Positions 10,653 through 29,169 of a stretch of 40,000 nucleotides of DNA are shown here, one piece after another (the stretch's first letter is position 1; every line of letters begins with the position of its first letter). Source of the stretch: an uncultured Alphaproteobacteria bacterium (GTDB lineage Bacteria; Pseudomonadota; Alphaproteobacteria; Rhizobiales; Rhodomicrobiaceae); NCBI GenBank assembly GCA_963798575.1, contig CAWCTL010000005.1:1392-41391 (forward strand). The letters are read 5' to 3'. The position numbers were made by a program, and so were the translations under genes. Under the pieces are notes generated by a model. That model saw only the letters and a program-made list of their open reading frames with translations. It was not told the DNA's origin and made no database searches.

Positions 10653-10773
10653 GGCACAAAACCGCTATGCGCGCACCGGTCAAGCAGGCCAGCCACTGTG
10701 GCCCACTGTGCCAATGCGTGCAGCTCAAAGCTTTTCCCGAGCGAGCCGAGGTGCAATCAAGAGGAACGGTCAA

Positions 10774-11073: not shown

Positions 11074-11349
11074 ACAGCAACAATCGCATCCTGAAATGCA
11101 AAACGCCCCCCTCGATGGCAGGGCGTCTAACGTGTTTGTGTGTGTGTGTCTGGTTGTCAGTTTCGCGTCAGTACTTGCTCAATTGTACCGCGTGAGCCGA
11201 CTCAATTCTGCTTGCTCAGGGCAGGAGAGCCAAACTGCAACTGGTCTAAGGTCTACGAAAGGTCAGTAACGGCAATGAATGATAACCCGAAAATAGAGAT
11301 TCGGTAGCGCCGTTGCAAGTCTTTTTGTGGGGCTTTGAGGGCACACCAC

Positions 11350-12570: not shown

Positions 12571-12893
12571 GCAACGGCAACACCATTTTCGACCCGCACA
12601 AGCGCATCAAAAAACGCGCGCCGACGCCCGCCGAGATCGAGCGCGTCAAAATGCAGACCCTTAGAGCCATGGCATCGATCGGCGGGGAGAACGCCATTAG
12701 CCTGCTCGTTCCCATGCTCGGATCGTTTCTGTGGAGTGAGCATCTACCGGCAAGCGGGCCGCACTTCGACGACTTCGCGGACGAGCTCGCCCGCACACTC
12801 AGCATGCAGATTGAAACCTTGGAAGCTGATGCAGCCGCACTAGCAACACCCACACGCACACAATTGAAAGGAAACCGCCATGCGTGGCATTGA
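12567..12893 (+). CDS. Hypothetical protein
   Basis: 108 aa. ATGA overlap with the rep stop and coding-like third-position GC. No recognisable motif. Confidence 0.55.
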   Translation: MSNGNTIFDPHKRIKKRAPTPAEIERVKMQTLRAMASIGGENAISLLVPMLGSFLWSEHLPASGPHFDDFADELARTLSMQIETLEADAAALATPTRTQLKGNRHAWH

Positions 12894-13333
12894 GACGGCA
12901 TTCTGGGGCGTGCTCGGAAAAGACCCCGAACTGAAGACGTCGAAGACCGGCAAGGCTTTCGCGACCATGAATGTTGTCGTGACCGTCGGCCAGTCCGCAA
13001 CAAAGACGTCAGCCAGTGGCTTCGCGTTGCCTGCTTCGGCCAGACTGCGAGCGCATCGGCGCAAACTGCGCGAAAGGCGATCGCGTTTACTGCGAAGGCA
13101 ATTTGACACTGAACACCTGGAACGACAAGACAACCGGCGAGACAAAGACCGGCTTAAACGTCGCGGCGTTCACAGTGACGAAGGTGGCGGCTATCGGCAA
13201 GAACCGGCCTCGCCGGGAAAACGGACGCGAGATCGGCCCGGCAGAGTTTGCGGGACCGGCACAGAGAGAAAAGCCGCGAGTGCAAGGGCGTGATGATTTC
13301 GATTTCGAACGCGGCGACGTGATACCGTTCTAA
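12880..13333 (+). pseudogene. ssb: Single-stranded DNA-binding protein, frameshifted
   Basis: SSB-like sequence is spread over three frames: MRGIETAFWGVLGKDPELKTSKTGKAFATMNVVVTVGQS (frame of 12880), QWLRVACFGQTA (from 13014), and ERIGANCAKGDRVYCEGNLTLNTW...DDFDFERGDVIPF (frame of 13016). The last ends in the canonical acidic D-I/V-P-F tail. Confidence 0.7.
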
Positions 13334-13348
13334 CCGGAGGCTGAGCGA

Positions 13349-14110
13349 ATGAAAAAGACAATGCCGGCCGCGAAGAAGGCCAAACCGGCCAGCGTGGCGC
13401 CGCAAGAGGAAAAGCCGGAATACAAGCCCACGCCGCGAGAGCAAGAGGCGTTGGAAGCCCTCAAAGCCGCACGCAAAGCCCGCAAGCCATCGGCAAGCCT
13501 GGAGGTCAAAAAAGGCGCATCTGGCGGGGCCAATATCAGGTTTGACCACAAAGACGATTTGACTGGCCAATTGCTTTTCATGCAAGCGATCGGCACCACG
13601 GATTTTGATTTCTGCGCAGGCATTCTAAAGCAGATCGTGAACACCAGCAGCCAAGGGCGCGAGCCTGACGAAGCGGCGGTAAACTTCGTGCTTTCCATCA
13701 TCAAGGGCATTGAGCCGAGAGACCAAACGGAGGCGATGCTTGCCGCGCAAATGGCCGCGACGCACATGGCAACAATGACGTTCGCGCGTCGCCTCGCGCA
13801 TGTGGACAACATCACGCAGCAGGACAGTGCGCAGAACGCCTTCAACAAGCTAGCGCGGACGTTCACGACGCAAATGGAGGCCTTGAAGCGCTACCGGAGC
13901 ACAGGGCAGCAAAAGGTGACCGTGGAGCACGTCACCGTGAACGCTGGCGGGCAAGCCATTGTCGGCAACGTCTCACACGGCACACCGGCGAATGATGCCG
14001 GGCAACCTCCATCTGTCCCGCTGGCAGTGATCACGGCTCCGAGCCAAACGCCTCTACAGCTACCGGGAGGGGGAGGGGTATCTCTTGAAAAGGTGCGGTT
14101 AACCTCATGA
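13349..14110 (+). CDS. Hypothetical protein (island-conserved type)
   Basis: 253 aa with a Lys/Ala-rich N-terminus. Good codon bias and GGAGG upstream. No family assigned. Confidence 0.7.
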   Translation: MKKTMPAAKKAKPASVAPQEEKPEYKPTPREQEALEALKAARKARKPSASLEVKKGASGGANIRFDHKDDLTGQLLFMQAIGTTDFDFCAGILKQIVNTSSQGREPDEAAVNFVLSIIKGIEPRDQTEAMLAAQMAATHMATMTFARRLAHVDNITQQDSAQNAFNKLARTFTTQMEALKRYRSTGQQKVTVEHVTVNAGGQAIVGNVSHGTPANDAGQPPSVPLAVITAPSQTPLQLPGGGGVSLEKVRLTS

Positions 14111-14361
14111 AACGGCACTATTCCTTTGAAAAAGCGCCGAGATGTACGGCCACGTCGAAGCGCACAAAGCAGCGTTGCGGAGCGCCTGCCGAGCGTGGCT
14201 GTAGCGTTTGCCGGTTTCATGGTGCGCGTGGTGGAGCTCCAAAAGGAAACATGCACGGCAGGTACAAACACGGCATGTTCACGAATGAGAGCATTGAGCG
14301 CCGCCGCGAAGTCGCTGGCTTGATACGGCAATGCCGGGAAACCATGGAGGCGATCCAATGA
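14107..14361 (+). CDS. Small Cys-rich protein with HG..GGAP.GN..G..KHG motif
   Basis: ATGA overlap with the upstream gene. CTATSKRTKQRCGAPAERGCSVCRFHGARGGAPKGNMHGRYKHG resembles small proteins seen in alphaproteobacterial phage-like elements. Confidence 0.65.
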   Translation: MKRHYSFEKAPRCTATSKRTKQRCGAPAERGCSVCRFHGARGGAPKGNMHGRYKHGMFTNESIERRREVAGLIRQCRETMEAIQ

Positions 14362-14561
14362 CGGTCACAACAAGAGAACCCGTCACGCCAAAGGGAGCGG
14401 TGGCGCGGAACCTCCGCTGGCGAGCAAAGAACCTTGATCACCATCGGCAATATCACGCGGCATACATGCGCACCTGGCGCGCCAGAACCGGGCAAAAAGC
14501 GGCGCGCTCTCACCCTGTTAATACAGCGCAAGAACAGCGAAGCCGTCACGCTACGCAATAA
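14358..14561 (+). CDS. Hypothetical basic protein
   Basis: ATGA overlap at 14358. 67 aa and Arg/His-rich. Weak support. Confidence 0.45.
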   Translation: MTVTTREPVTPKGAVARNLRWRAKNLDHHRQYHAAYMRTWRARTGQKAARSHPVNTAQEQRSRHATQ

Positions 14562-14593
14562 TTTCTTCGCGCCCATAAAAAAGGGCTGAAACG

Positions 14594-15031
14594 ATGCTGA
14601 AACTGAAGCCGCGCCTCGATCTCCATCAGCACCCGCGAAAGCTCTTGCGGTGGAAGAGCTGCACGGTATGCAGCAAGCCCTTCGTTGGTCATTGCGCCTC
14701 GCGTCAATGTTCTGACCCTTGCCGTGCGGAAGCTGTTCGAGCACGAGGCCGCGTGTCGTCGCAAAGGATCAGAGACGCCCGCCGCGAGCCATTGCCTGAC
14801 ATGCCTTGCTTGTGGTGCCGGAAGCCGATGCAGCGCGAGCGCTCCACAAGGCGAACGTGCTCTGACGCTTGCCGGAAGGCGCTTTCCAGATTTGAGCGCG
14901 CACGCAAGAAGACGCGCCGCCGCGCGGGATGCGAGCGACCCGGCGCTGGGCACCATGGAGTTGATGGTAAATCGGCAGGAACAAGGGCCGGAAACCGCGC
15001 TTTCAGCCGACAGGGCGGGCGAAACCAATGA
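14594..15031 (+). CDS. Hypothetical protein with two Zn-ribbon-like C-x2-C...CSD-x-CR motifs
   Basis: CTVCSKPFVGHCASRQCSDPCRAEA and CLWCRKPMQRERSTRRTCSDACRKAL are duplicated Cys motifs. The alternative frame 14685..15170 was judged less protein-like. Confidence 0.55.
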   Translation: MLKLKPRLDLHQHPRKLLRWKSCTVCSKPFVGHCASRQCSDPCRAEAVRARGRVSSQRIRDARREPLPDMPCLWCRKPMQRERSTRRTCSDACRKALSRFERARKKTRRRAGCERPGAGHHGVDGKSAGTRAGNRAFSRQGGRNQ

Positions 15032-15384
15032 AGCCACCGCGCGAACCTCAAAGCAAAGACGCGCAGGACACCATGAAGTTGATGGCAAGGCTCCGCGGCT
15101 TCATGAGGCAACAAAAGCTCACTCGCGGGGCGATGGCGGAAGTTCTCAAGACGCCGCTACGGACTCTTGATGGCTGGCTCGATCACGGAACGACGCCGCC
15201 GGCTTGCCTCCTTCCGCTCATGGACCTCCTCGAAAGCCGCTCGCAAGTTCGGACCTGGCTTGGCGTCAAAACAAGCACACGCAAAGCCGAGCCGCGCGGC
15301 CGGCCGTTTCGCCGGGGCAATGAATGGCGCTTCGGCGACCTGCGCCGCGACGAGGCGCCGGCCGGGTCACGCCTGGATGATTGA
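15028..15384 (+). CDS. Putative HTH regulator
   Basis: ATGA overlap at 15028; an internal ATG at 15073 (MKLMARLRGFMRQQKLTRGAMAEVL) is an alternative start. Same general architecture as the ORF at 23559. Confidence 0.55.
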   Translation: MKPPREPQSKDAQDTMKLMARLRGFMRQQKLTRGAMAEVLKTPLRTLDGWLDHGTTPPACLLPLMDLLESRSQVRTWLGVKTSTRKAEPRGRPFRRGNEWRFGDLRRDEAPAGSRLDD

Positions 15385-15514
15385 GTTTATCCAGCGGCAC
15401 AAAAAGAACTGCTCGACTTGGCGCCTCGCAAAACCAACGGCAGGATTACGGCAAAGTTGATGAGGCCACCACGGCGCTGGACAAAGCCTAGAATTTTGGC
15501 GATGTGTTAAGTAA

Positions 15515-16435
15515 TTGCACGGAACGGTCATGCACAAGTCAGTTGATGATGCGCCAAAGCTCGCCCCGTGGCGCCGAGCGATGATTATTGCCAAAATGGG
15601 GCTGCTTTGGTGCGGCGGTGTGCTGTTCTTGATCGAGGCGGCCGGGCATCAGATACAGTACTCGTCAAGCTGGGCATTCGTCCCGCTGATAACCACGGCA
15701 CTGGCCCTGCTACCACCCAGCCGCGCATTCCTTTCTCGATTGTTGGGCTGGAAGGCTCCGCGGACAGCGCTCATTGTGCTTCTGATTGGCGGCACCGGCG
15801 TCTCAATGATGGTCATGGATGAGGCAAGAAGGAAAGACACTGTGGCGGTGGCCAAGGGCTTTGCCTCTGACGCTGAAATGACAAGAGCCGCGTCGTTCGG
15901 GTTGACCTCCTCCGCCGATCTATCTGCACACGACGCAAAGGAGAAAGTCAAAGCGGAAGAGGCTGCCGCTAAGGCTGCGGCGGAAGTAGCGGAAGCAGAG
16001 CGTAAAACGCCAATCACCAAGTGCGAAAACCTCCCTTATTCCGCATCGATCGAGACGTTTACAAACTCGCAAACTACCGTCGTTTGCCGGGAGATGTTGC
16101 GAGTTTTGGAAGGCGTCACGGTCGAAGACCTGAAGACCTTTGAGAAAGCGGTCTATTTACTGTCCGCCAAGGGGTACAAGACCGATGCTTACAAGCAAAT
16201 CGCTGCGGAGCTCGTCGATATAATCCGCCTCCGCGGGCTTTATGACCACGAGCCCAGATGGAAACCCACTATCGAAGTTGTTTGGAAAAGCTTTTCAGCG
16301 TTCAATGGCGTTGTAACGCCCGCTGACGTCGAACTTTTTCTAAGCAGTGCCGGTCCAATGGCGAAGACGCTTTCGGATGACGGCCTGCTATCCATGATCA
16401 TCGTCATGAAAAGGCAATACCAGCGTGGCGAGTGA
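15515..16435 (+). CDS. Membrane protein with N-terminal TM helices, an Ala/Glu/Lys coiled coil and a soluble C-domain
   Basis: Hydrophobic segments (MGLLWCGGVLFLIEAAG, WAFVPLITTALALL, ALIVLLIGGTGVSMMV) are followed by KEKVKAEEAAAKAAAEVAEAERK. The start is uncertain. Confidence 0.65.
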   Translation: MHGTVMHKSVDDAPKLAPWRRAMIIAKMGLLWCGGVLFLIEAAGHQIQYSSSWAFVPLITTALALLPPSRAFLSRLLGWKAPRTALIVLLIGGTGVSMMVMDEARRKDTVAVAKGFASDAEMTRAASFGLTSSADLSAHDAKEKVKAEEAAAKAAAEVAEAERKTPITKCENLPYSASIETFTNSQTTVVCREMLRVLEGVTVEDLKTFEKAVYLLSAKGYKTDAYKQIAAELVDIIRLRGLYDHEPRWKPTIEVVWKSFSAFNGVVTPADVELFLSSAGPMAKTLSDDGLLSMIIVMKRQYQRGE

Positions 16436-16772
16436 AATAAAAGGCCGCCGCGCAGTCCTGGCCGAGGAGCCGGAAATCGTCGATCTGCCACGTGATGCCT
16501 ATCACTGGAGCGAGAAAACCGCCGAAACGCCAGCGGCGCAAGCGCGCGAGGCGCTCGGCTTCTCGGATTGGATGCTGTTCATCACGGCTGCCGCGGTGCT
16601 GATCGAGTTCGCGACCGGGCGCCATGGGCTCGCCGGAGGCCTTGTGCTGTTCGGGGGGGGTATCAGGCTGAAACTGTTGTTACTCGATCGAGTGAGTACC
16701 CGCGTGCCAGACTGGCTTCTTTTCGCGATCCCGACCGCCTTGGTATGGGCGGTGCTCCTGCTGCTGATGTAG
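16425..16772 (+). CDS. Small membrane protein
   Basis: GTG start overlapping the upstream gene by 11 nt. Hydrophobic segments MLFITAAAVLIEF, LAGGLVLFGGGI and LLFAIPTALVWAVLLLLM. Confidence 0.45.
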   Translation: MASEIKGRRAVLAEEPEIVDLPRDAYHWSEKTAETPAAQAREALGFSDWMLFITAAAVLIEFATGRHGLAGGLVLFGGGIRLKLLLLDRVSTRVPDWLLFAIPTALVWAVLLLLM

Positions 16773-16833
16773 CCCTCGGCGTAGGAACAGGCGTCACCTT
16801 TCATTGACAACATAGCCTAGAAGCTATACATTT

Positions 16834-17202
16834 ATGACTTGGAAAATAGAATTCGACGATGCGTTCGAGGCAGAGTTTGCGGCTTTGGCGGTTGATGTTC
16901 AAGATGCTTTGCTCGCCGCGGCCAAGTTGCTGGCCGAATATGGGCCGCTACTGAAGCGGCCGCATGCGGATACGCTCAACGGCTCGAAGCACGCCAATAT
17001 GAAGGAGCTGCGGTTTGAAGCTGCGGACGGCGAATGGCGGGCCGCCTTCGCCTTCGATCCCAATCGCAAGGCGATCCTGCTTGTGGCTGGTGACAAATCC
17101 GGCGGAAGCGAAAAGCGCTTCTATAGGCAGCTCATCGCAAAGGCGGACAGGCGGTTTTCTGCACACCTGGAATGCCTGAAGGCCGCGAAGAAGGGAAAGT
17201 GA
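16834..17202 (+). CDS. Type II toxin, RelE/ParE superfamily (HigB-like, toxin-first operon)
   Basis: MKELRFEAADGEWRAAFAFDPNRKAILLVAGDKSG..KRFYRQLIAKADRRF matches the Gp49/HigB-like toxin pattern. It lies 1 nt upstream of an XRE antitoxin gene. Confidence 0.8.
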   Translation: MTWKIEFDDAFEAEFAALAVDVQDALLAAAKLLAEYGPLLKRPHADTLNGSKHANMKELRFEAADGEWRAAFAFDPNRKAILLVAGDKSGGSEKRFYRQLIAKADRRFSAHLECLKAAKKGK

Positions 17203-17203
17203 C

Positions 17204-17575
17204 ATGGGCCGGAACCTGAGCGAGATCATAGCCGAACTCCCGCCTGAGCGGCAGGAGCACATCGAAACGCGCTATCAGGAACTCAGGCAGGAAGTGGAGA
17301 GCTTGCGCAAGCTGCGGCAGATTGCGGGCAAGGCTCAGGCCGATATCGCAACCGCCCTAAAGATCAAGCAGCCATCGGTGTCCAAGATCGAAAAGCAGGC
17401 TGATATGTACCTATCGACTCTGCGCGGCTACGTGCGCGCGATCGGTGGCGAGCTAGAACTGACGGTAAGACTGCCGGACCATCCAGCTTTGCGGCTTCAG
17501 CACCTCAGCGATGCGCTTGGACATACGCCGCGAAAGGCAAAACACAAGACTCGCAAACGGCGCGTTGCTGCTTAG
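17204..17575 (+). CDS. XRE-family HTH antitoxin (HigA-like)
   Basis: LRKLRQIAGKAQADIATALKIKQPSVSKIEKQADMYLSTLRGYVRAIGGELELTV is an HTH_XRE-type domain positioned directly after the toxin gene. Confidence 0.8.
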   Translation: MGRNLSEIIAELPPERQEHIETRYQELRQEVESLRKLRQIAGKAQADIATALKIKQPSVSKIEKQADMYLSTLRGYVRAIGGELELTVRLPDHPALRLQHLSDALGHTPRKAKHKTRKRRVAA

Positions 17576-17946
17576 GCACTACGCGGCTGCCGTTTCGCCT
17601 TCGCTTGCGGCAACTCCATCACATCCCTGCGCCCCAAGAGCCAATCAATGGAGATCTGGAGGCGATCGGCGACATTTGCGACGTGGTACGCACGCGAGTA
17701 CGCACCGTCGCGCGCGTGCGAGGGCTTAGGCCGTAGCGCGTACTCCCGGCCCGGTGGCGCAGCGCCCTTGTGTTATCCGGCCGATGTCACTGGCGGCAAG
17801 GTTTTGGACTGGCGCAAGGCACACGAGACAAATGCGGCGGCAAACTGATGGCAACGCTCTCTGAGCATGGACTTGGCCAGCAATCTATCATGGCGATGCG
17901 CGCGCGGCATGGGCTTCGAAGCGCTGGGGGCCCCTACACCGAGCAT
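17572..17946 (-). pseudogene. Degenerate XRE/cI-like regulator
   Basis: The minus-strand frame ends ...VANVADRLQISIDWLLGRRDVMELPQAKAKRQPRSA, a typical XRE C-terminus. It is interrupted by an in-frame TAA at 17773-17775, and an HTH-like stretch (LAASDIGRITQG) sits in another frame. Confidence 0.3.
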
Positions 17947-17963
17947 GCTCACGTAAAGTTACA

Positions 17964-17978
17964 TTATCGTGAGCTAAA
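17964..17978. repeat. 15-bp direct repeat TTATCGTGAGCTAAA (left end of nested element)
   Basis: Exact copy of 23506-23520. Lies 68 bp beyond the SNF2 stop codon. Part of the inverted repeat GCTCACG-N14-CGTGAGC. Confidence 0.5.
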
Positions 17979-18045
17979 AAATGACCAGACAGGAGGACAG
18001 CGAGGCATCGACGAAAGGAAGGGCTCCTGGGAGCCATGCCCGACA

Positions 18046-21000
18046 TTATCCTGACGCAGACCAGGAATTATTCGTCCGTCGGCCGATGGCAAGGCGACCG
18101 ATGATAGCTCTATCCAGGACAGAAAAAACAAAACCGATGTGGCGAGTGCGAAGGCCGAGGAGCTTTTTCTGTTGGGCGCAGATCGCGAGTTGTTGGCCAT
18201 CGGGTGATGCTTGAACGCTTTCCACGGTGCATCTTGAGTCGCTAGCCGCCGAAATGCGGCATTCGAGGTCGCTCCAAAGCTCTCGCCGATCCGAAGCGCG
18301 ACGAGTGCCATTGAGCATCTCAGCGAGGGGCAAGAGCCTGAAGGGTAGCTGGCGGGTCACGAAGGAGTAGTGGATCTGAAGCCCAGTAAGCTCGCAAGCC
18401 CGGATGTCGTCGGGATGGGCATCTCGACCGCTCCAGGCGCAGGGCAGGGCCTCTGACTTTGTACAGAACTTTCCCAGGTCGGACCTGAGGGCCTCGTCTT
18501 CAAGACAGCGCAAGCTTGATCGGCTGCTCGTTACGAAAAACTGCTTGAGAGCTTTTCGGCCGCTGACCGAGGAGGCTTCCAACTCGGAGGGGACAACCCG
18601 CCGCCGGGATACGACGCACTCTTGGAGAAGGCCCGGGAAAACGGCCACACCCGTGACAGCGCACTGTTCGGCTTCGCTAGCCAGAAGAACGCGCCCAGTG
18701 ACGCCACATGTGATGAATTCCGATATATGACCCGTTCGGCCGGAGACTTCTGACCGCCTAACCTGGTCGGCGCGGAAGCGCTTGCCTGACACTTCGCTGA
18801 CGGCAAGCTCTGGAAGAAGAGCGTTAGCATTGGTGAAGGCACAGCGGGCGAAGTGCTCAGGCTCCGCCTTGCGACCACTCAACGAAGATATCTTGAGCAG
18901 CGACCGCAGGACGAGGTTGCCCGTAACCGCCGAGGGCTCAACTTCTGTTGACAGCACACGCTTGCCGCTCAGGCCGCAGACGGTCATGTACTCCGGAAGG
19001 GCGTAGCGATCGGAGGCAGCTGACCTAACGAGAAGGTGGCGGAGGACGCGCATGCCGGAGACGGCGCATTCGCCCATGGCATCGATCGGAGCGCCGGTGC
19101 CCGATTTCGCGCACGTGGCAAAGGCAGGAGCCTCGGCGATCTGGGAGGCTGACGGCACCACACGGATGGCGGAGCTGGATTCAGTTTGACCATCGAACGT
19201 GTAAGTGACGCGGTTATCCAGGATGCGATGGACGGTGCCGCGAAGCCCAGTGACGGTCGTTTGCAAGCGGGGTGTGAAGTCATCCTCCAGCTTCTTGCTC
19301 ATGCGCAGATCGTTGCCTGCAGCGTGGACCTCTTCCGCCCTTCGCTCCGTGTAGAACCGGCAGAACTCCGCAATTCCCGGATCGAGCATAACGCTGCGTG
19401 TCAAGCGATCGAGTGAGACACCAACTTTTTCGGGGAACTCGACGACGGGGGGCAGGGGATCGAGCGCGGCCACGCCGTCTGCTACCTGGTGATCGGCGCT
19501 GGAGCAGTCGACAGGGATCAGGCGCTCATAACTATCGTGGGCAACGGTTGCTCTCACCTGGACCAACGCCTGCCCTTCGAAAGCGCGCGTGACCTTCACC
19601 AGCTTTGTCGATCGGAGCGTGCCGCCAAAGGACTTCACCCAGTCGGCGCATAGGGCCTGAGCGCGTTGTTGCGGATTGGCGTCGGCGTCGCGAACGTCAT
19701 GCACGCCGGATTGGGTAACACGGGTGATGAGCTGGTCAAATGCCTGAGAGCCGGGTGCATAGAGGATGGAGCGTGCCTCGGGGTCCGGCTCCTCCGAGAA
19801 GCGGATCCGGTCGACCCGGCCATCGAGGTCACACAGAAACGTGTCAGGTGACTGCTCAGAGAGGTTGGCTCCCAACACCTGCAGTCCGGCCAGAACGAAG
19901 TCGCGCGCCGTCATGGAGCGCGTTTGAGGCGGCAAGTCGGGGCTACGGGGGCCCTTGAAGGCCGCACCATCCATCGCGCCGAGCATCTCGTTGATGGTGT
20001 TCTCCTCGGCATCGAGGGTCCGTCGTGCGCGGTCGATACTGTCCCTAGCTGCTTGTGTCGCTGCATCGACGTCTTTTCCCTCCAAAGAGGAGAGCACGAG
20101 ACGGAGAATTTCATCTTCGAAGCTTTGGGCACGTCCCTCCTCACCGTCTCCCATACCCGAAGCTTGGAGGAGAGATTCGATGTCGCCGATGGCGTGGGAA
20201 GCCATCTGCAGCTTCTCCATCAAGCGCCCAACGATGTAGTCCTCGAATGTGCCGGACAGCGTGACGCTGTAGACAAGGACACTGGCGTGGTCCGATCCAA
20301 GGCGCTGGATGCGTCCGATACGCTGTTCGACAATCATCGGATTCCACGGCAGGTCGTAATTGACCAGCACGTTAGCGGCCTGGAGGTTGACACCTTCGGA
20401 GCCCGCTTCCGTGGAGACGATGACGTTGAGCTTCGGCGGCGGAGCCTTGAAGGCGGCGATGGTCGCTTGGTTCTTGCCGGTCGTTTCGCCGTTGATAATG
20501 CCGACTGGAACACCCAAAGATTCCAAATAGGCCTGAATAGTCGTCTGCGTCTCTCGACGTTGCGTAAAAACGACCATCCGCCAATTTTGCGGGTTTTCGC
20601 GTTTCAGCTTGTCGACCAATGTGGCGAGCCCTTGGAGCTTCGCGCTCATCTTCATGCTTTTGACGACGGCCCGGAACTCGCCGGCTACTCCGGCCGGAAA
20701 GGTGCCTTTCTTCGCCATGTTCTCGAGCTGGAGCGCGCACGCATCGGGGCTGCTCGTCAGTGCCTGTAGAATGCTAATCTGGGCCAATCGATTGAGCTTT
20801 TGGATCGGTTTCGCGATGAGCTTATGCAGCGCCCATTCCTCTGGTGTGGGTGTGACACCCTGCCGAAAGACCTCGCGTTTGGGGAAATGCAGTTGGGCGT
20901 CGGCACGGCGAACGCGCGACATGTACCCATAGACGATCGACCGAAATTGATTCTTAGCCTCGACCTTGAGTTGTCGCGCCTGCGTGCGGTTGTCGGCAAT

Positions 21001-21747
21001 GAAGTTTCGGGCGAACATGCCCTCGCTGCCGAAAGGGTTTTGATGGCCACGGGCGACTGTGAGCAGGTCAACCAAGGAATAGAGATCCCAGAGCCGATTC
21101 TGGATCGGCGTCGCCGTCAGCATGAGGACGAACTTAAATGTGCGTTCGGCTAGAACTTCGCGGAAGCGGACAGCCACCTGAGGTGGGTTTGGAACACCAT
21201 GCAAGTTCCGGAGCTTATGGGCCTCGTCGAGTATTAGCATCTGGAAGCGATCGCGTGGTAGCCGGTTGATGTACACGCGAGCCGAGTGGTAAGTCGTGAT
21301 GACGGCGCCCACGTCGCCATCAGGGTCAGCGTCGAGGAGCTTCTTGCCTGGGGCCACAAGAGCAGGAATGTTGAACTTGGTCTCCAACTCCTCCTTCCAC
21401 TGCGGACCTAAGAGCTTAGGCGCGACGATGATAATCCTGTTCAGTCGGCGCCTGGAGATGAGTTCGCTTGCGATCAATCCAGCGCTGATCGTCTTGCCGA
21501 GGCCAACGTCGTCAGCAAGCAGCGTGACGGGAAGGCGACGGCAGAAGGTTATGAGGTTATTTACTTGGTGCTGGAAAGGCTTAACACGGTCGTTCCAGCG
21601 CACCTCTGACTTAAGGTCCTGGCGATTGTTGATGATGATCGGATCAACGAGACCCCACTCCAAGCCCGCGCAATACACGTCGAACTCGGCGGGATTTTTC
21701 AACCGGCGGAGCGGCTTGGTCTGCACCTGGTGTGGCTGTGAGGGCAT
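18046..21747 (-). CDS. SNF2-family helicase with a large C-terminal extension ending in 17 x 15-aa repeats
   Basis: Helicase motifs LADDVGLGKT, ILDEAH, LMLTATP and QRIGRIQRLG. The ATG at 21747 is preferred over the TTG at 21765. Residues ~885-1138 carry periodic [C/S]-x-[V/L]-[S/T]-G repeats. Confidence 0.9.
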   Translation of the reverse strand: MPSQPHQVQTKPLRRLKNPAEFDVYCAGLEWGLVDPIIINNRQDLKSEVRWNDRVKPFQHQVNNLITFCRRLPVTLLADDVGLGKTISAGLIASELISRRRLNRIIIVAPKLLGPQWKEELETKFNIPALVAPGKKLLDADPDGDVGAVITTYHSARVYINRLPRDRFQMLILDEAHKLRNLHGVPNPPQVAVRFREVLAERTFKFVLMLTATPIQNRLWDLYSLVDLLTVARGHQNPFGSEGMFARNFIADNRTQARQLKVEAKNQFRSIVYGYMSRVRRADAQLHFPKREVFRQGVTPTPEEWALHKLIAKPIQKLNRLAQISILQALTSSPDACALQLENMAKKGTFPAGVAGEFRAVVKSMKMSAKLQGLATLVDKLKRENPQNWRMVVFTQRRETQTTIQAYLESLGVPVGIINGETTGKNQATIAAFKAPPPKLNVIVSTEAGSEGVNLQAANVLVNYDLPWNPMIVEQRIGRIQRLGSDHASVLVYSVTLSGTFEDYIVGRLMEKLQMASHAIGDIESLLQASGMGDGEEGRAQSFEDEILRLVLSSLEGKDVDAATQAARDSIDRARRTLDAEENTINEMLGAMDGAAFKGPRSPDLPPQTRSMTARDFVLAGLQVLGANLSEQSPDTFLCDLDGRVDRIRFSEEPDPEARSILYAPGSQAFDQLITRVTQSGVHDVRDADANPQQRAQALCADWVKSFGGTLRSTKLVKVTRAFEGQALVQVRATVAHDSYERLIPVDCSSADHQVADGVAALDPLPPVVEFPEKVGVSLDRLTRSVMLDPGIAEFCRFYTERRAEEVHAAGNDLRMSKKLEDDFTPRLQTTVTGLRGTVHRILDNRVTYTFDGQTESSSAIRVVPSASQIAEAPAFATCAKSGTGAPIDAMGECAVSGMRVLRHLLVRSAASDRYALPEYMTVCGLSGKRVLSTEVEPSAVTGNLVLRSLLKISSLSGRKAEPEHFARCAFTNANALLPELAVSEVSGKRFRADQVRRSEVSGRTGHISEFITCGVTGRVLLASEAEQCAVTGVAVFPGLLQECVVSRRRVVPSELEASSVSGRKALKQFFVTSSRSSLRCLEDEALRSDLGKFCTKSEALPCAWSGRDAHPDDIRACELTGLQIHYSFVTRQLPFRLLPLAEMLNGTRRASDRRELWSDLECRISAASDSRCTVESVQASPDGQQLAICAQQKKLLGLRTRHIGFVFSVLDRAIIGRLAIGRRTNNSWSASG

Positions 21748-21775
21748 TTTGCGGGACAGCGGCAATCAAATGAAA

Positions 21776-21797
21776 AACATAGACCTGAACATAGACC
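21776..21797 (-). promoter_or_regulatory. Tandem 10-bp repeats upstream of the SNF2 gene
   Basis: AACATAGACC at 21776-21785 and 21788-21797 (GGTCTATGTT on the coding strand), about 30-50 nt upstream of the start. Palindrome TTGAC-TTCA-GTCAA at 21873-21886. Confidence 0.3.
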
Positions 21798-21976
21798 GCG
21801 CCCCACGAACAGAGGCACGCCTGCCGGAGGGGAACCAGCAGGATACTATAGCTGAGCCCCACGCTGTGGTCATTGACTTCAGTCAAGCCAGTGTCAACGG
21901 TGGCCTGTCGCCGCAATACACGCTCACGCGTGAAAAGCGGCCCCTACGGAAGCGTTCACCGCGCCATATGTCAGGG

Positions 21977-22378
21977 TTAGTCCTTTTTGACGAGCTTAAC
22001 CAATGCTGGCGCCGCTTTTCTCTTCTCGGTTCGCAAAGGCACTTCGCTAAAGTCCGCGTCAAGCGGCTCGGAAGCAATCGGCTTCCGGCGCCTAAACAGG
22101 CCCGAAAATGACTGGAGCGAGGTGCCGACGATAGCGTCTTTATTTGTTTCAAGGTAGGCTATTGTTGCACGAACCTGGCCGATGAAATCTTCGCGGAGAA
22201 TTTCGCCCAAGATGTCAGATTGCACTTTCAAATGACGCCATTTGCCTGTCCAAGCTCCGGGGAGTTTGTTTATCCAACGGTTCGCCACCCTCGACTCGCA
22301 AGAATAGAAGTTCCTTGCCTGAGCATCTTGAAGCGCGGCCTTCAGGGCCGCAATCACCGCATCAACATCTTTTGCCAT
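21977..22378 (-). CDS. Hypothetical 133-aa protein
   Basis: Starts 6 nt after the recombinase stop, so it is probably in the same operon. No recognisable domain. Confidence 0.65.
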   Translation of the reverse strand: MAKDVDAVIAALKAALQDAQARNFYSCESRVANRWINKLPGAWTGKWRHLKVQSDILGEILREDFIGQVRATIAYLETNKDAIVGTSLQSFSGLFRRRKPIASEPLDADFSEVPLRTEKRKAAPALVKLVKKD

Positions 22379-22384
22379 GTCGAC

Positions 22385-23350
22385 TTACCCTAAAATGCTG
22401 TCGAGCGCCTGCGCAACCTGGCCCGCATGATCGGCCCGGTTGTCATCGTATCGGCGCACCGTATCAAGTGACGCATGCCGGGAGAAGGCTCGCGTCTTCC
22501 TATAGTCACCGTTGAAGGCATCGAGTGCGGCGGTGATTGCCGTATGCCTCAAGCCGTGAGGCCTGGCACTGACGCCAGCGGCGGCGCCGAGCTGGCTGCG
22601 AATGATGTGATAAATGCCGGAGCCGGAAAGGCGCTCGCCATGCGTGTTGCGGTCCATGGCAATAAACAGCGGCGCCGCGCGGTCATCGGTGCCGCGAACG
22701 GCGAGCCACGCCGCAAGGGCGGTTTTCACATTCGAGGGAAGCGTCATAGGCTCGCGCTCTGTCCTGCCCTTGCCGAGCACGGAAAGCGTTCCGGCTGCTA
22801 AATCGAGGTGGCCAATATTCAGGCTCTCGATCTCGCCGCGGCGAAGGCCGAGACCGTAGGCAATCCGGATAATGGCCGCGTCACGGGCCGCCTTCTCCGG
22901 GCTCTGCTCATTTGCCGCCGCGAGCATGTTTTGCACGCCCCGCACGCCCGGGCCTTTCGTGTCGCGGTAAGCCCTGGACTTCACGCCCTTAGCTTCGAGC
23001 CGGAGAATGGTGATTCCGTGCCGCCTCGCGCTCGCTACAAGGCTGTTGAGCGCGGACATGCTCCGGTTGATGCTGGCAGGAGAAAGGCCGCCTTCGAGCT
23101 TCCTCGCCCGCCACGCATCGGCGACTGCGTGCGCTTGGCCATCATCGAGCGCGAGGAAATGCGCTACCGCCTCGGCAACGTTGTCTCGGCCGGCGAAGGT
23201 AGCGAAAGCGGTGATCTCCCGACGGTACGCCCGGCACGTATTTTCGCTGGGGAAGCCAGCAAGCCAGAGGTCGAGCGCACTGCGCACCTTCTCGGTCATC
23301 GCGGCTGCGACGGCGATCTGGCGCCGTGGCGATTTGGTGATAGCGTTCAT
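22385..23350 (-). CDS. Tyrosine recombinase, XerC/XerD-like
   Basis: N-terminal SAM-like domain (TCRAYRREITAFATF). Catalytic region has LGLRRGEI, HGLRHTAIT and RRYD. Confidence 0.9.
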   Translation of the reverse strand: MNAITKSPRRQIAVAAAMTEKVRSALDLWLAGFPSENTCRAYRREITAFATFAGRDNVAEAVAHFLALDDGQAHAVADAWRARKLEGGLSPASINRSMSALNSLVASARRHGITILRLEAKGVKSRAYRDTKGPGVRGVQNMLAAANEQSPEKAARDAAIIRIAYGLGLRRGEIESLNIGHLDLAAGTLSVLGKGRTEREPMTLPSNVKTALAAWLAVRGTDDRAAPLFIAMDRNTHGERLSGSGIYHIIRSQLGAAAGVSARPHGLRHTAITAALDAFNGDYRKTRAFSRHASLDTVRRYDDNRADHAGQVAQALDSILG

Positions 23351-23505
23351 TTCGGCTCGCTCCTCGCTCGCCCCAGGTGGCCCCGCTGCTCCCGCTTTTC
23401 CCTAAGGTGGCTTGGACTGCCAGCGAGGGCTAACCGTGGAGGTGTGAACTGGGAAAATCCCTTTTCACGCCCTTAACGTAATCTACTCGGTTACGCATGT
23501 CAACG

Positions 23506-23520
23506 TTATCGTGAGCTAAA
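23506..23520. repeat. 15-bp direct repeat TTATCGTGAGCTAAA (right end of nested element)
   Basis: Exact copy of 17964-17978. Lies 155 bp upstream of the recombinase start and 38 bp upstream of the HTH gene at 23559. Confidence 0.5.
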
Positions 23521-23558
23521 TATTGCTTTTCATTTAGCGATAGGTTACACGCCATCAT

Positions 23559-23807
23559 ATGGAAAGAATGACGCCGGAAGAATTCGAAGCGATTTGCAGA
23601 CGCCTTAGGCTGTCACGCCGCGACTTTGGCCGCCGCTTCGGAACCGGCCCGAACCAGGCGCAGCGATATGCTGACGGAAGCGTCAAAATCCCCGGCCCGA
23701 CCGCAATCCTTCTCCGTATTCTCGACCGCCTGCCCGAGCTCATGAGCATGGTCCCGGACGCGGCGGCGAAACGCAGGCGGAAGGGGGAAGCGCCGTGTGA
23801 AGAATAG
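23559..23807 (+). CDS. Small HTH regulator (Cro-like position)
   Basis: MTPEEFEAICRRLRLSRRDFGRRFGTGPNQAQRYADGSVKIPGPTAILLRIL. The antisense ORF 23555..23968 was judged spurious. Confidence 0.6.
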   Translation: MERMTPEEFEAICRRLRLSRRDFGRRFGTGPNQAQRYADGSVKIPGPTAILLRILDRLPELMSMVPDAAAKRRRKGEAPCEE

Positions 23808-23877
23808 GGCACCTGGTGCCCTAAGCTGGCGTCTTCGAGGGCGAGGAACTTGGCAACAGCCTTGGAAAAGCGAGACG

Positions 23878-24021
23878 TTACGCACCTCGCTGTGGCGTCG
23901 ATGGTTCCGGCTCCGGAGAGTCCGGCATCTCCATCACGCTCATTACATCCGAGCGCCCAACCAGCCAATCCACGCTCACGTCGAGTTAGTCTGCGATCTG
24001 AGCGAGCGGTAAATACTTTTC
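23878..24021 (-). pseudogene. Remnant of an XRE-type regulator C-terminus
   Basis: LAQIAD-TAA-LDVSVDWLVGRSDVMSVMEMPD is homologous to the 17572-17946 remnant through the shared S(I/V)DWL(L/V)GR(R/S)DVM. It carries an in-frame stop and has no N-terminal part. Confidence 0.25.
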
Positions 24022-24088
24022 TTATTGCGGCTTTTCCCCCTTGAGGCTAAATAGGTGGTATTAGTTATCATGAAGCTTCCAGAGACAA

Positions 24089-24400
24089 ATGAGCACTAAA
24101 TCTATGAGGATCGCCACCGTTTCCGGCGCAGAGCCAGGAGAGCGGGGGCGCGTAAAGGACCCCTCGAAAGACAGGCGTTTTGCAACGAATAGGGAAGGCT
24201 CTACGGGTCAAGGCAAGGTCATAAATCCAGAGCAGGACAAGCGTCTCGCGGCAAACCGTTCGGGCCCAACCGGCCAAGGTGAGGTGCGCGACCCAAACCG
24301 TGACCGCCGTCTGTCCCGTAACCGGCAAGGGCCAACCGGCCAGGGTAAGGTTAAGGACCCAGCTCGCGATAAGCGCCTCTCCTCCAACCGTTCCACGTAG
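24089..24400 (+). CDS. Hydrophilic tandem-repeat protein (22-aa repeats)
   Basis: KDPSKDRRFATNREGSTGQGKV / INPEQDKRLAANRSGPTGQGEV / RDPNRDRRLSRNRQGPTGQGKV / KDPARDKRLSSNRST. A hairpin follows the stop codon. Confidence 0.6.
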   Translation: MSTKSMRIATVSGAEPGERGRVKDPSKDRRFATNREGSTGQGKVINPEQDKRLAANRSGPTGQGEVRDPNRDRRLSRNRQGPTGQGKVKDPARDKRLSSNRST

Positions 24401-24784
24401 CAGCGCAGAGCCCCCGGGGCTGTGGCGCTAAGTGGTCTTCCTCATCGCTGGCACCTCAACACTGCGTGCCACACATTCGCGCAGCGTTGCGGGCAGACGT
24501 GCCTGGGGAGCCGCGTATCTTGCCAAGACGTTTACACGCTAAGGCCGCAGGCGAGCATGAGGCGGAGGGTTCGCAAACTTGCGAAGGCTCATGTGTGCCG
24601 GGAAGCGTCGTAGATGGATGGTGCTGCAATTCGGCAACAGACGGCGTTTTTGTCCCGCCGCCGCTAGTGTTCCGCTACGAGTTGCGTGGCGAGCGCAATC
24701 TCCTCTGTGGGTACGTTTGAGGGTACACTTGCGCCTTTCTGAATATTTTATCGGGTAATCAATGCCTTAGAAGCCATCGTGGAA

Positions 24785-24800
24785 CCTCTTCTGGGCACCA
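24785..24800. repeat. att-type repeat: second copy of the tRNA-Leu 3' end
   Basis: CCTCTTCTGGGCACCA is identical to 8751-8766. An integrase gene starts 88 bp downstream. Confidence 0.8.
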
Positions 24801-24887
24801 TCATAATTTCTCCCCATTGACATTGCATAGCATTCTGATCTGCAAAGCGTTTTCGCCTCCTTCCTGGTACACACGGGAGGCGCACAC

Positions 24888-26504
24888 ATGGTCCTTAGAA
24901 TGTCCCGCCCTTGGAGGCACCCCCGAACCGGCACGTGGTATCTCAGAGAGCGCATTCCCCGCGATACTATCGAGAAGGCGAGAGGCCGCGTTGTTCACTT
25001 CCCGCCTGAGGCTGGCGGCTCCAAGGTCACGGTAGGCAAGGAGCACGTCAAAGCCTCGCTCCGCACCAAAGAAGTGAGGGAGGCAAAGGACAGGCACGCG
25101 GCGGCTTTGGCGCATCTCAAGCGCTTCTGGGATACGGTACGGAAGGGGCCGCAACCTCTTACGCACAGACAGGTTACCGCCTTAGCCGGGGAGACTTACA
25201 GGGCCTTCGCCAAGGGCTTTGAGGATGACCCCCTGTCTCCGCAACATTGGCGGCAAGTGGCCGAAGCGAACGAGGCCGCGAACCAAGGGGGGTTCGGCGT
25301 GGCCCCCCTCATGATCCTGGACAGCGAGAAGCAACGGCGAGCCGTCGCGATGGAACTGCGCTTTGGGAAGCTTGCGGACGGCGTTCTAGCGGCTCGCGGC
25401 GTAGTCATTGACCACGATAGCAGAGGACGGCTCCTGGACGCGCTACGCGATGCCCTCAATCAAGCCGCAGAGAAACTTGAGCGGAACGCAAAAGGGGATT
25501 ACCGGGCGGACCCGGACGCAGAGCGTTTCCCCAAATGGGAACCTAAGAAGGACGCAAAGGCCGGGCTAGGGCATAGGCGGCGACTAAGCGCGGTGTTTGA
25601 GGCATGGGCACTGGAGGCGGCGGCGTTAGGGCGCTCCGAAAAGACCGTGAAGGAATACCGCTCCTTAATCCAACGCTTCATCGCCTTTTTGGGGCATGAC
25701 GATGCGGCTAAGGTCACTCAGGCGGACATTGTGGGATGGAAGGCTAAGCGCTTAGCCGAAAAGATTGCGCCCAAGACTGTGAAGGCCGGAGACCTCGCAG
25801 CCTTAAAGTCAGTGTTCAAATGGGCGAACGAGAACGGCCTGATTACTACCAATCCTGCAAAGGATGTTACCCAAAAGCTCGGCAGGAAGCGCCAGGAGAG
25901 GTCTAAGGGGTTTAGTGACCAAGAGGCCGGAGCCGTGCTTAAAGCCGCCCTGGACTACGCTGCGCCGCCCCGCGAGCATCCTAAGACCGCCGCCGCAAGG
26001 CGTTGGGCACCTTGGCTGTGTGCATATACCGGGGCGCGTATCGGGGAGATCTTACAGCTCAGGCGCGGTGACGTTTCTCAAAGGGATGGCGTCTTGGTCA
26101 TGCGGATAACGCCAGAGGCGGGAACCGTGAAAGACAAGAAGTGGCGCGAAGTGCCGTTGCATCCGCATCTTGCTGAGCTTGGCTTTGCGGAGTTCGTTGA
26201 GGGGAGCGCAGAGGGCTACCTTTTTGTCAACTGCCGGGACGCGAACGCAAGGGGGACGATACAGGGCGTCAAGAACCGCGTCTCAGAGTTTGTGCGGGTG
26301 GTCATTCACGATAAGCGCGTGGCTCCGAACCACGCATGGCGGCACCGCTTCAAGACGATAGGCATCGAGGCCGGGATTGCTGAGCGGGTATTGGACGCAA
26401 TTTGTGGGCACGTCCCCCGCACTGTTGGCGAAGCTTACGGGGAGGTCTCATTGCACGCCAAGATACAAGCTATCGGAAAGTTGCCACGCTACACCTTGGC
26501 CTAG
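24888..26504 (+). CDS. int: Tyrosine integrase (538 aa)
   Basis: Catalytic region YTGARIGEIL...HAWRHRFKT...CGH...EAYGE. The N-terminus MSRPWRHPRTGTWYLRERIP is shared with the stub at 34120. Confidence 0.9.
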   Translation: MVLRMSRPWRHPRTGTWYLRERIPRDTIEKARGRVVHFPPEAGGSKVTVGKEHVKASLRTKEVREAKDRHAAALAHLKRFWDTVRKGPQPLTHRQVTALAGETYRAFAKGFEDDPLSPQHWRQVAEANEAANQGGFGVAPLMILDSEKQRRAVAMELRFGKLADGVLAARGVVIDHDSRGRLLDALRDALNQAAEKLERNAKGDYRADPDAERFPKWEPKKDAKAGLGHRRRLSAVFEAWALEAAALGRSEKTVKEYRSLIQRFIAFLGHDDAAKVTQADIVGWKAKRLAEKIAPKTVKAGDLAALKSVFKWANENGLITTNPAKDVTQKLGRKRQERSKGFSDQEAGAVLKAALDYAAPPREHPKTAAARRWAPWLCAYTGARIGEILQLRRGDVSQRDGVLVMRITPEAGTVKDKKWREVPLHPHLAELGFAEFVEGSAEGYLFVNCRDANARGTIQGVKNRVSEFVRVVIHDKRVAPNHAWRHRFKTIGIEAGIAERVLDAICGHVPRTVGEAYGEVSLHAKIQAIGKLPRYTLA

Positions 26505-26541
26505 CTTAATGAGCAGCCGCCGCCCTGAGGCCTTAAGTGCC

Positions 26542-26590
26542 GGGGTATACAGTCCTTACGGTGTGCATTTTGTACAGGGGCGGCGGGCGC
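26542..26590. repeat. ~45-bp imperfect direct repeat, copy A
   Basis: GGGGTATACAGTCCTTACGGTGTGCATTTTGTACAGGGGCGG aligned against 32263-32312 shows about 4 mismatches over about 43 nt. Contains GTGCA-TTT-TGTAC. Lies 38 nt after the integrase stop. Confidence 0.6.
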
Positions 26591-26689
26591 TGGCGACCGC
26601 AGCCATGTTTCTTGATCTAGCGTATAGCTTGACCTGAGCCATCTATCCCGGATTTGATGTGATCCCAGCCCCAATATCGGAGCACCCGC

Positions 26690-27820: not shown

Positions 27821-28293
27821 GCCGTGGCTACCGTTATGCCCGTGGGTGCGGGGCAGAACTAAGCGAACCAACAAAACTACGTCGTGCTAACGCTTGGATG
27901 GGGCTAAAGGGGTGCCTTTTGCCCTGTCCCGCCTCCCGTGATGTCGCACGTACGTAATGCCTCCCCGATAATTTTTTGGTGGGAATTTACGAGTGCCTAA
28001 TCGGACCTTACAGCCCGCGCGCATCCCCCCCTTGCCGCCCTCCAGCGCCAATATTGCGGCCAATAACTTCAAGTTTTGCCTCCTTCAAGAGCGATATAGA
28101 AAGACTTAGTTGCAGTATTAACACACAAAGACGCGGTGCAGCCAAGCATTTATTCGTCGCTCCAAGGCGGTTGCTCTGGCGTAAGCTTGAATATTCCAGC
28201 ATATTCTGCTATCAGTAGTGCATTCTACTTCCGCATGACCTCGGCTTCAAGGCATACAGCCAAGCGTCCATCTAGCTAAACATTGGAGGGAAT

Positions 28294-29010: not shown

Positions 29011-29169
29011 TTGTCAGGCGGGGGCGGGAACTCCCCCGCATTCCGCTTGGGGACAGGGAAGCACCAAAGCACAGGCTCGGATCAGCGATGGTCCGGGCCT
29101 TTTTTGTCGGCGGGAGCTGCGGAGGCGCGGCGGTGATGCCGCTATAAGAAGTAAGACATCCCCGCAGCG

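Follow-up and report, generated by a model that had tools for sequence, protein, structure and literature searches.

An SNF2-family ATPase, encoded on the minus strand at 18046..21765 of a 40,000-nucleotide stretch of DNA from an uncultured alphaproteobacterium (GenBank assembly GCA_963798575.1, contig CAWCTL010000005.1; the whole stretch is hereafter called the window), carries between its motor and a small C-terminal domain an array of 17 repeat units with a period of 15 residues. Structure prediction and residue covariation indicate that these units form a stack of knuckle-type β-hairpins and not a series of 15-residue solenoid coils. The explanation that best accounts for the observations taken together, to which we assign a probability of about one half, is that the array is a rigid stalk of 17 hairpins on a mobile SNF2 translocase belonging to a defence-like translocase-nuclease module, a function that we infer, and, jointly with this, that the array marks out a large clade of bacterial SNF2 proteins which is unannotated in the libraries searched and moves horizontally on integrative islands. 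The parts of the protein, numbered from its first residue, are as follows.

18046..21765, minus strand: complete SNF2-family ATPase gene, 1239 amino acids plus stop, TTG start at 21765 (open reading frame list, Pfam)
20788..21525, minus strand: SNF2 N-terminal ATPase lobe, residues 81-326, with GLGKT at 88, DEAH at 180 and TATP at 217 (Pfam PF00176, motifs)
20296..20616, minus strand: helicase C-terminal lobe, residues 384-490, with SEGVNL at 456 and QRIGRI at 481 (Pfam PF00271, motifs)
19114..20295, minus strand: post-helicase linker and family-specific middle α/β region, residues 491-884 (AlphaFold2 (AF2), local hidden Markov model (HMM))
19147-19425, minus strand: conserved block of the middle region, residues 781-873, kept in 235 family members (local HMM)
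18484..19113, minus strand: 14 canonical 15-residue units, predicted knuckle-hairpins, residues 885-1094 (sequence, AF2 secondary structure, covariation)
18442..18483, minus strand: irregular 14-residue unit, residues 1095-1108, SDLGKFCTKSEALP, with the conserved Cys1101 (unit similarity, homologue conservation)
18352..18441, minus strand: last two units, residues 1109-1138 (CAWSG...HPDD and CELTG...H; conserved Cys and His residues)
18049..18348, minus strand: C-terminal domain of ~100 residues, residues 1140-1239, of no known family (AF2, local HMM)

Both lobes of the motor score above the Pfam gathering cut-offs (SNF2-rel_dom, PF00176, 80.3 bits against 24.9; Helicase_C, PF00271, 69.5 bits against 23.5), nothing further is found in the protein by Pfam at these cut-offs, and ATPase motifs I, II, III, V and VI are all intact; judged by its sequence, the protein is an SNF2-family ATPase of superfamily 2. 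The C-terminal half matches no family in the libraries searched, and the sequence-only reading had likewise assigned the repeat to none: Pfam searches at E ≤ 10 with residues 606-884, 876-1138 and 1139-1239 return a sub-threshold DUF2093 match alone (13.8 bits), PHROGs have no match for the C-terminal half, PADLOC and NCBIfam have no significant match for the last 634 residues, their matches being confined to the helicase core, and PDB sequence profiles retrieve SNF2 cores only or a weak match of MfpA to the array. In the AF2 model of residues 606-884 the middle region has two very long predicted β-hairpins, and the block scores of the predicted local distance difference test (pLDDT) are mostly above 90. 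The C-terminal domain is predicted to consist of two helices followed by a five-strand β meander, and its local HMM matches 152 of the 267 family sequences collected.

The repeat array and its predicted fold

The sequence-only reading had described a Cys or Ser recurring every 15 residues in the same open reading frame as the SNF2 motor, and both the period and the linkage are borne out at the protein level. The array spans residues 885-1138, exactly nucleotides 19113-18352, with 17 of 17 positions in register (885, 900 and so on to 1095, then 1109 and 1124), for which the chance is ~3e-14 at the local Cys/Ser frequency of 0.16; the single 14-residue unit that had been remarked upon is located at residues 1095-1108. 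The sequence-only reading gave [C/S]-x-[V/L]-[S/T]-G as the usual motif at these residues, and 11 units fit [CS]-x-[VLW]-[ST]-G. Identity autocorrelation reaches 0.196 at lag 15, whereas shuffled sequences average 0.072 (z = 7.5, 0/10000 shuffles as high), its peaks are confined to multiples of 15 with lags 30, 45 and 60 as high as lag 15, and unit-to-unit similarity reveals no higher-order period within the 17 units. Tandem Repeats Finder (minimum score 30) detects no DNA repeat in 18000-19400, and nucleotide identity at lag 45 is merely 0.35 against a background of 0.24-0.29; the period is therefore maintained at the protein level, as had been supposed.

The unit consensus is [C/S]-x-[VLI]-[S/T]-G-[K/R]-x-[VA]-L-x-[EDS]-[EL]-[LAF]-x-x. 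Position 1 is Cys in 58% and Ser in 40% of units, and position 4 is Ser or Thr in 92%; Cys occurs at position 4 in 29 of ~4700 units, mainly at the array ends of divergent members, which have true CxxC...CxxH arrangements. Hydrophobic residues fall at positions 3, 8 and 13, that is, every five residues, Lys or Arg accounts for 52% of the residues at position 6 and 33% at position 7, E/D prevails at positions 11-12, and the array of the window protein has a net charge of +6 (33 K/R against 27 D/E). The order of Cys and Ser by unit is C C S C S S C S S C C C C S S C C, so that 7/17 units carry Ser and not Cys, and at 15 of the 17 register positions 97-100% of homologues make the same choice, the remaining two being the units at 960 (68%) and 1065 (78%).

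The ends of the array differ from its interior. The unit at residue 1095 (SDLGKFCTKSEALP) is a sequence outlier with a negative similarity score against all other units, and with the last two units it makes up a distinct Cys/His-rich end (C1101, C1109, H1117, C1124, H1132), whose residues are strongly conserved in homologues (C1101 97%, C1109 97%, W1111 97%, H1117 97%, C1124 100%, H1132 84%). From this conservation we infer that Cys1101 and the last two units form a Cys/His-rich cap and a candidate metal site. At the N-terminal end, C885, C896, C900 and H910 are present in 89% of homologues; the window protein has Ala at 896, and its N-terminal Cys/His cluster would therefore be incomplete.

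Structure prediction returns a regular repeat fold. AF2 models of residues 606-1239 (mean pLDDT 95.0, predicted template modelling score (pTM) 0.65) and 866-1150 (mean pLDDT 95.2, pTM 0.72) both give the periodic secondary structure EEE------EEEHHH. The predicted unit comprises a strand (positions 13-15 of the preceding unit), a six-residue loop (1-6) with the sequence [C/S]-x-h-[S/T]-G-[K/R], a second strand (7-9) and a 3-10 turn (10-12); such an alternation of three, six, three and three residues therefore points to one β-hairpin per unit. In these models the hairpin turn appears to be shaped like the zinc-ribbon knuckle C-x-x-C-G, with the second cysteine now Ser or Thr and the first either Cys or Ser.

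Covariation was computed over 134 arrays of identical length (effective number of sequences 106) with the 14 canonical units pooled, single pairs without pooling being too noisy for use; none of 900 long-lag control pairs exceeded z 4.1. The hairpin is closed across the knuckle by position 15 and the following unit's position 7, which covary at z 7.6. Position 14 covaries with position 7 two units on (z 11.7), a contact from hairpin to hairpin, and position 8 with position 13 (z 7.2). Positions 1 and 4 also covary, C with T and S with S (8/2 versus 1/5 by unit, Fisher p 0.035), as would be expected if the two positions were in contact, like the two ligands of a CxxC knuckle. None of the 15 positions is coupled to its equivalent in the next unit (all |z| < 1.7), and coupling from i to i+20 is limited to positions 2 and 3 (z 3.4 and 3.1) and absent at 8 and 13, which therefore argues against both a 15-residue coil and a 20-residue coil of the pentapeptide type. 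Foldseek searches of the PDB with the 634-residue and 285-residue models give no match at E ≤ 1e-3; the best matches, all non-significant, are tandem LIM, PHD/PZP and CHY zinc-finger arrays, and the top 50 include no β-helix and no Rfr fold or pentapeptide-repeat protein. Among viral models (BFVD) there are 18 matches at E ≤ 1e-3, mostly uncharacterised phage and giant-virus proteins, and phage proteins annotated as 'LIM domain containing' and 'prokaryotic metallothionein' lie just above that value.

These results bear directly on three other folds that could be proposed for the array. The 'solenoid-like fold of 15-residue coils' of the sequence-only reading, in which each unit makes one coil and successive strands stack parallel and in register, would suit the strict period and the hydrophobic positions 3, 8 and 13 of a triangular coil, and the secondary-structure string by itself is compatible with it; such a fold is improbable given the lack of any i to i+15 signal beside a hairpin pair at z 7.6 and the lack of a β-helix among the Foldseek matches, and the claim as it was worded is not upheld. 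It is possible that the hairpins stack into a superhelix, which could be called a 'solenoid' if the word is used broadly and would suit the four-unit quantum of array length described below. The same quantum of 60 residues equals the least common multiple of 15 and 20, as would fit a pentapeptide-like quadrilateral β-helix in which each unit holds three pentapeptides and each coil takes 20 residues, perhaps a DNA mimic like MfpA or Qnr; [C/S]-x-[VL]-[S/T]-G resembles the consensus of pentapeptide repeats, the spacing of hydrophobic residues is five, and an MfpA profile matches the array with E = 0.009. However, the MfpA domain scores 12.5 bits with an i-Evalue of 0.29 and large gaps, Pfam pentapeptide models fail even at E ≤ 10, K/R and E/D occupy positions 6 and 11, where this fold would call for small inward-facing residues, and the i+20 coupling spares the hydrophobic positions 8 and 13, all of which makes this fold very improbable. 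Scarcely credible, finally, is a trimeric fibre shaft, or triple β-spiral, like that of adenovirus fibre or PRD1 P5. These too have 15-residue repeats, and adenovirus fibres are among the BFVD matches (E 4e-5 to 2e-3), but with probabilities of 0.1-0.35 and template modelling scores below 0.1. The triple β-spiral motif has alternating hydrophobic residues and Gly or Pro at the turn, which does not fit the array consensus, and the array is modelled as a monomer at pLDDT 97-98 without partner chains and is internal to a cytoplasmic motor protein.

Family, array length and nuclease association

A search with residues 606-1239 retrieved 128 proteins of 36-65% identity, nearly all of them unnamed metagenomic sequences. 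The 15-residue spacing, including the single 14-residue unit, is kept in 120/120 of the closest homologues, and the array has the highest column conservation in the C-terminal half (0.67, against 0.57-0.66 elsewhere). The suggestion that the repeats act as a sensor is not favoured, because the array is conserved unit by unit and is not a fast-evolving surface. When a profile without the motor was searched against 1.84 billion representative proteins, the family amounted to at least 717 clusters at 50% identity, from many bacterial phyla, 339 of them at E ≤ 1e-30; full-length members have 1208-2098 residues, and intact homologues of the window protein 1224-1266. With each species represented by a single genome, 125 carriers were detected, from which 80 loci were kept for analysis of context. 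At ~45% identity these span Alphaproteobacteria, Gammaproteobacteria, Nitrospirota, Acidobacteriota, Patescibacteria, Planctomycetota, Verrucomicrobiota, Cyanobacteria and other phyla, and the closest (locus L008, from a Rhodomicrobium metagenome-assembled genome (MAG)) encodes a protein of 98% identity. The family was not found in PLSDB plasmids or INPHARED phages by tblastn, nor in IMG/VR by a pattern scan, and the literature search produced nothing relevant on SNF2 proteins that have Cas4-like partners or whose repeats are of 15 residues, of the zinc-ribbon type or hairpins.

The reading frame is intact in 66 of the 80 loci, and several of the others are frameshifted or have in-frame stops at differing sites. 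The breaks are often in the N-terminal ATPase part: one homologue (L001) has frame changes near residues 110 and 164; that of Bradyrhizobium sp. 190 changes frame near residue 203 in two independent assemblies (L002/L003); another (L004) has an in-frame stop near residue 190; and a family member 100% identical to the window protein (P0103) is out of frame after about residue 790. Such breaks suggest either that a costly gene has been inactivated repeatedly or that the assemblies contain errors.

The number of units varies among homologues, from ~9 to ~72, and changes almost only by four units (60 residues). Measured as the distance between the middle-region and C-terminal-domain HMMs in the 209 proteins with both flanks, array length equals that of the window protein in 169. 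The other differences are +60 (3 proteins), +120 (18), +179, +236, ~+300 (4), +361/362, +418/423, +480/482, -61 and -120 residues, with five values outside the 60-residue series (-129, -28, +9, +134 and +407). In P0040 the inserted material is a single unit type present four times, P0001 and P0002 have a block of eight units, P0135 and P0141 have C-S-S triplets, and the ~72-unit array of P0125 (2098 residues) contains a 12-unit super-repeat of 181 residues. Because the inserted material thus differs by lineage, it seems that total length is what is selected, modulo four units, and not that duplications have a fixed size. A superhelix with four hairpins per turn would explain the four-unit steps and is a candidate geometry for the array. 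As separate observations, a divergent branch (P0125, P0133, P0137 and others) has up to ~72 units, occasional units of 16 residues and a different C-terminal domain, and some members (P0203, P0205, P0212, P0223 and P0233) have an acidic, helical N-terminal extension of 175-330 residues; searches of the N-terminal extensions of divergent members found no known domain.

The sole recurrent neighbour over the 80 loci is a nuclease, a protein of ~500 residues with Cas4-like PD-(D/E)xK and RNase_H_2/DEDD domains, or DUF2779. DUF2779 has been described as a fusion of a Cas4-like nuclease with a DEDD exonuclease (PMC13621843). The nuclease is encoded nearby in 27 of the 80 loci, mostly directly adjacent to the SNF2 gene (gaps of -7 to +77 nucleotides), on either side and at times convergent with it; in a few of these loci the gene is 0.3-3.7 kb off, or the SNF2 gene is fragmented or fused. 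In a Pyrinomonadaceae MAG (L064, 6632-11908) a single product of 1758 residues has the Cas4-like/RNase_H_2 nuclease joined in frame ahead of the SNF2-hairpin protein, and this fusion is a Rosetta-stone link between the nuclease and SNF2 genes. Other homologues lie in an integrase/Prim-Pol/DUF927 island, beside HEPN-MNT and OLD-family genes, and at the edge of a PRD1-like prophage.

Proposed role of the array and alternatives

We propose that consecutive hairpins pack into a long rigid stalk, which would connect the SNF2 motor and the middle region to the small C-terminal β domain. The protein would be the DNA translocase of a defence-like DNA-targeting module, and in about one third of genomes this translocase probably partners with the Cas4-like PD-(D/E)xK and DEDD exonuclease, whose gene is nearby, as a rule immediately adjacent, or fused to its own. 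The stalk perhaps serves as a spacer of fixed geometry that determines how far the C-terminal domain or a partner is from the motor and at what angular phase, and its length would be tolerated only in four-unit steps because it fixes distance and phase. The basic tips of the knuckles (K/R at positions 6-7) may run along DNA. A more far-reaching version, which we offer tentatively and regard as doubtful, is that of a phase-locked ruler, in which the array is a new rigid hairpin superhelix whose whole four-hairpin turns keep the SNF2 motor and the distal domain or Cas4-DEDD nuclease on the same face of the substrate, together forming an unrecognised, widespread immune module against mobile elements.

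Several observations weigh against this proposal. Two thirds of the loci are without the nuclease and no Cas4-like/DEDD nuclease gene is present elsewhere in the window, and the translocase-nuclease model is therefore not the whole story. The neighbourhoods of the homologues are heterogeneous, with a recombinase or terminase within 10 kb in ~18 of the 80 loci, and neither PADLOC nor NCBIfam recovers a known defence system, the matches being to the core alone and far below cut-offs. The AF2 models and the covariation draw on the same family alignment and are hence not fully independent, and the invariance of Cys or Ser in each unit may point to a chemical function of the cysteines, for which a spacer by itself gives no explanation.

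Such a role is the substance of another reading, in which the array is metal-binding or redox-sensing and its cysteines bind zinc or iron or form reversible disulfides. A purely structural role would not demand that the choice between Cys and Ser be nearly invariant, Cys/His clusters occur at both ends of the array with true CxxC...CxxH in divergent members, zinc fingers are the nearest folds, with a metallothionein annotation on one BFVD match; yet internal knuckles have at most one Cys, 7 of the 17 units have Ser in its place, Ala896 leaves the N-terminal cluster of the window protein incomplete, and single-Cys knuckles in a linear stack cannot supply four ligands, so that we consider the reading unlikely. 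The K/R residues at the hairpin tips and E/D on the opposite edge could instead make the array an extended binding platform or sensor for a long ligand lying along it, either DNA or RNA held by the basic tips or a peptide held by β-augmentation. Its closest fold analogues, the tandem LIM domains, are peptide-binding and bind LDB1, but the net charge of the array is merely +6, and strong conservation of every unit is unlike a sensor in an arms race; a platform, which is compatible with a spacer, is a possibility well short of even odds. We judge it rather unlikely that the protein is a non-defence SNF2 remodeller, acting in RNA polymerase recycling like RapA or in replication or integration of its island, with the stalk as a protein-docking arm. 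Its gene does stand beside recombinase genes with a replicase in the same island, two thirds of the loci are without a nuclease and there is a partial NCBIfam match to RapA; however, that match (NF003426) reaches 117 bits against a cut-off of 576, and RapA was rejected on this score, the neighbours in the window are unconserved elsewhere, and a patchy spread across phyla at ~45% identity together with pseudogenised copies is more typical of accessory conflict genes.

SNF2 motors are commonly interpreted by way of their accessory domains, and the array is an accessory domain uncatalogued in the libraries searched, confidently modelled and under strong purifying selection. Length steps of four units are rare among protein repeats and suggest a geometric constraint such as helical phase, and the nuclease pairing and the one fusion point to a helicase-nuclease module on mobile islands that is undescribed in the defence catalogues and papers searched. 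Even if the array were a passive spacer, a domain model for it would make thousands of 'DEAD/DEAH box helicase' annotations informative.

Genomic setting and comparison with known systems

The SNF2 gene is part of an integrated element, delimited by a 19-nucleotide direct repeat (AGTCCTCTTCTGGGCACCA) with copies at 8748-8766 and 34016-34034, 25.3 kb apart, in which the following features were recognised.

8748..34034, no strand: integrated element holding the SNF2 gene, ~25 kb (19-nucleotide direct repeat of the tRNA-Leu 3' end)
8682-8766: tRNA-Leu(CAG), followed by the P4-type integrase
8956-10191: P4-type integrase (Pfam)
11335-12570: replicase (Pfam)
16834-17575: Gp49/HigB-like toxin (122 amino acids) and helix-turn-helix (HTH) antitoxin (123 amino acids)
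22385-23350, minus strand: XerC-like recombinase
24888-26504: second integrase, DUF6538-type
29215-29949: resolvase

The toxin and antitoxin genes share one base where they meet and are convergent with the SNF2 gene, whose 3' end they face, and a Gp49/HigB-like toxin and HTH antitoxin pair also adjoins the homologue in one other locus (L073). The window neighbours are otherwise not conserved beside homologues in other loci; an upstream open reading frame of 133 residues and the XerC-like recombinase were considered as partners and set aside, being unconserved beside homologues and matching no Pfam or PADLOC family. Positions 8638-23865 of the window, and this stretch alone, align with 6091-21310 of the Rhodomicrobium MAG locus L008 at 98.9% DNA identity, and Rhodomicrobium is therefore the probable origin of the window. 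Because L008 shares this stretch and is without 23866-34034, which holds the second integrase and the resolvase, the island looks composite, with two elements in tandem. Upstream of the second integrase, 24089-24400 is a putative gene, an open reading frame of 103 residues with about four repeats of ~23 residues (N-R-x-G-x-T-G-Q-G-K-V-x-D-P-x-x-D-K-R-L). Outside the island, a three-domain protein of 1075 residues (Methyltransf_24, WbsX glycosyltransferase and RgpF) is encoded just upstream of tRNA-Leu at 5322-8549, in a patch of low GC content (0.48 against ~0.60). The genes beyond 34034, for cytochrome c and outer-membrane proteins, are chromosomal-looking, and three paralogous cytochrome c genes (36705-37379, 37351-38094 and 39142-39843) flank an outer-membrane β-barrel gene there (38091-38867).

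Among named families, the best relatives of the core are DrmD, BrxH and DpdE (197, 167 and 168 bits), at scores two to six times below the equivalog cut-offs; for DrmD, NF038317 gives 197 bits against a cut-off of 610 and NF038318 167 bits against 950. No DrmA, DrmB, DrmC or methylase neighbour was present among the window open reading frames scanned, and the 141 immediate neighbours in the 80 loci include three DrmA/DrmD-type PADLOC matches, all of which match SNF2-core models together (DrmD, BrxH, HmaA, DpdE and DrmA). Membership of DISARM as a DrmD was rejected on the score and the lack of partner genes. The protein is thus like DISARM DrmD, BREX BrxH and Dpd DpdE in its ATPase core and unlike them in that their partner genes are absent from the window and from the immediate neighbours in the 80 loci.

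ZorD of Zorya was likewise rejected (NF041790, 83.8 bits against 1500), the protein having no nuclease domain and no Zor genes nearby, as was HmaA, whose PADLOC model matches the helicase core alone (143.9 bits in two stretches, the best at residues 375-527); Pfam finds no PDDEXK nuclease in residues 606-1239 at E ≤ 10. HmaA, an SNF2 ATPase with a PD-(D/E)xK nuclease, alone protects against phage T4 (PMC11232893), and it is the closest functional precedent, though the protein belongs to no named family. HmaA and ZorD resemble the present case in linking a PD-(D/E)xK nuclease to an SNF2 motor that is encoded on a mobile or defence island, whereas the nuclease here is a separate, optional gene of another type and HmaBC and ZorABC are lacking. 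Neither HmaA nor ZorD has a counterpart of the hairpin stalk, the middle region or the C-terminal domain.

The array itself can be compared with repeat proteins and zinc-binding folds. With the pentapeptide proteins MfpA and Qnr it shares [S/C]-x-[L/V]-[S/T]-G and hydrophobic residues every five positions, but its period is 15 and not 5 or 20, and charged residues occupy the would-be inward positions. Choline-binding repeats form a β-hairpin superhelix with one hairpin per short repeat, an open-ended rod that varies by whole repeats; their repeats have ~20 residues with aromatics and are extracellular and ligand-binding, and none matched the array in any search. The knuckles of zinc ribbons and rubredoxin and the LIM domains are alike in their short hairpin, in C-x-x-[S/T]-G as compared with C-x-x-C-G, in a spacing of ~15 residues and in making an elongated module. 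The geometry of the knuckle hairpin is found in the array (AF2, covariation of positions 15-7 and 1-4), but the rule of two ligands per knuckle fails, and since internal units have one Cys or none there are therefore no Cys4 sites; zinc ribbons and LIM also have two to four hairpins per domain, whereas the arrays here have 17 to ~72 uniform units. The array may consist of zinc-ribbon-like hairpins that have lost their internal metal sites and retain metal-binding caps; divergent family members keep true CxxC knuckles at the ends of their arrays, as in zinc ribbons.

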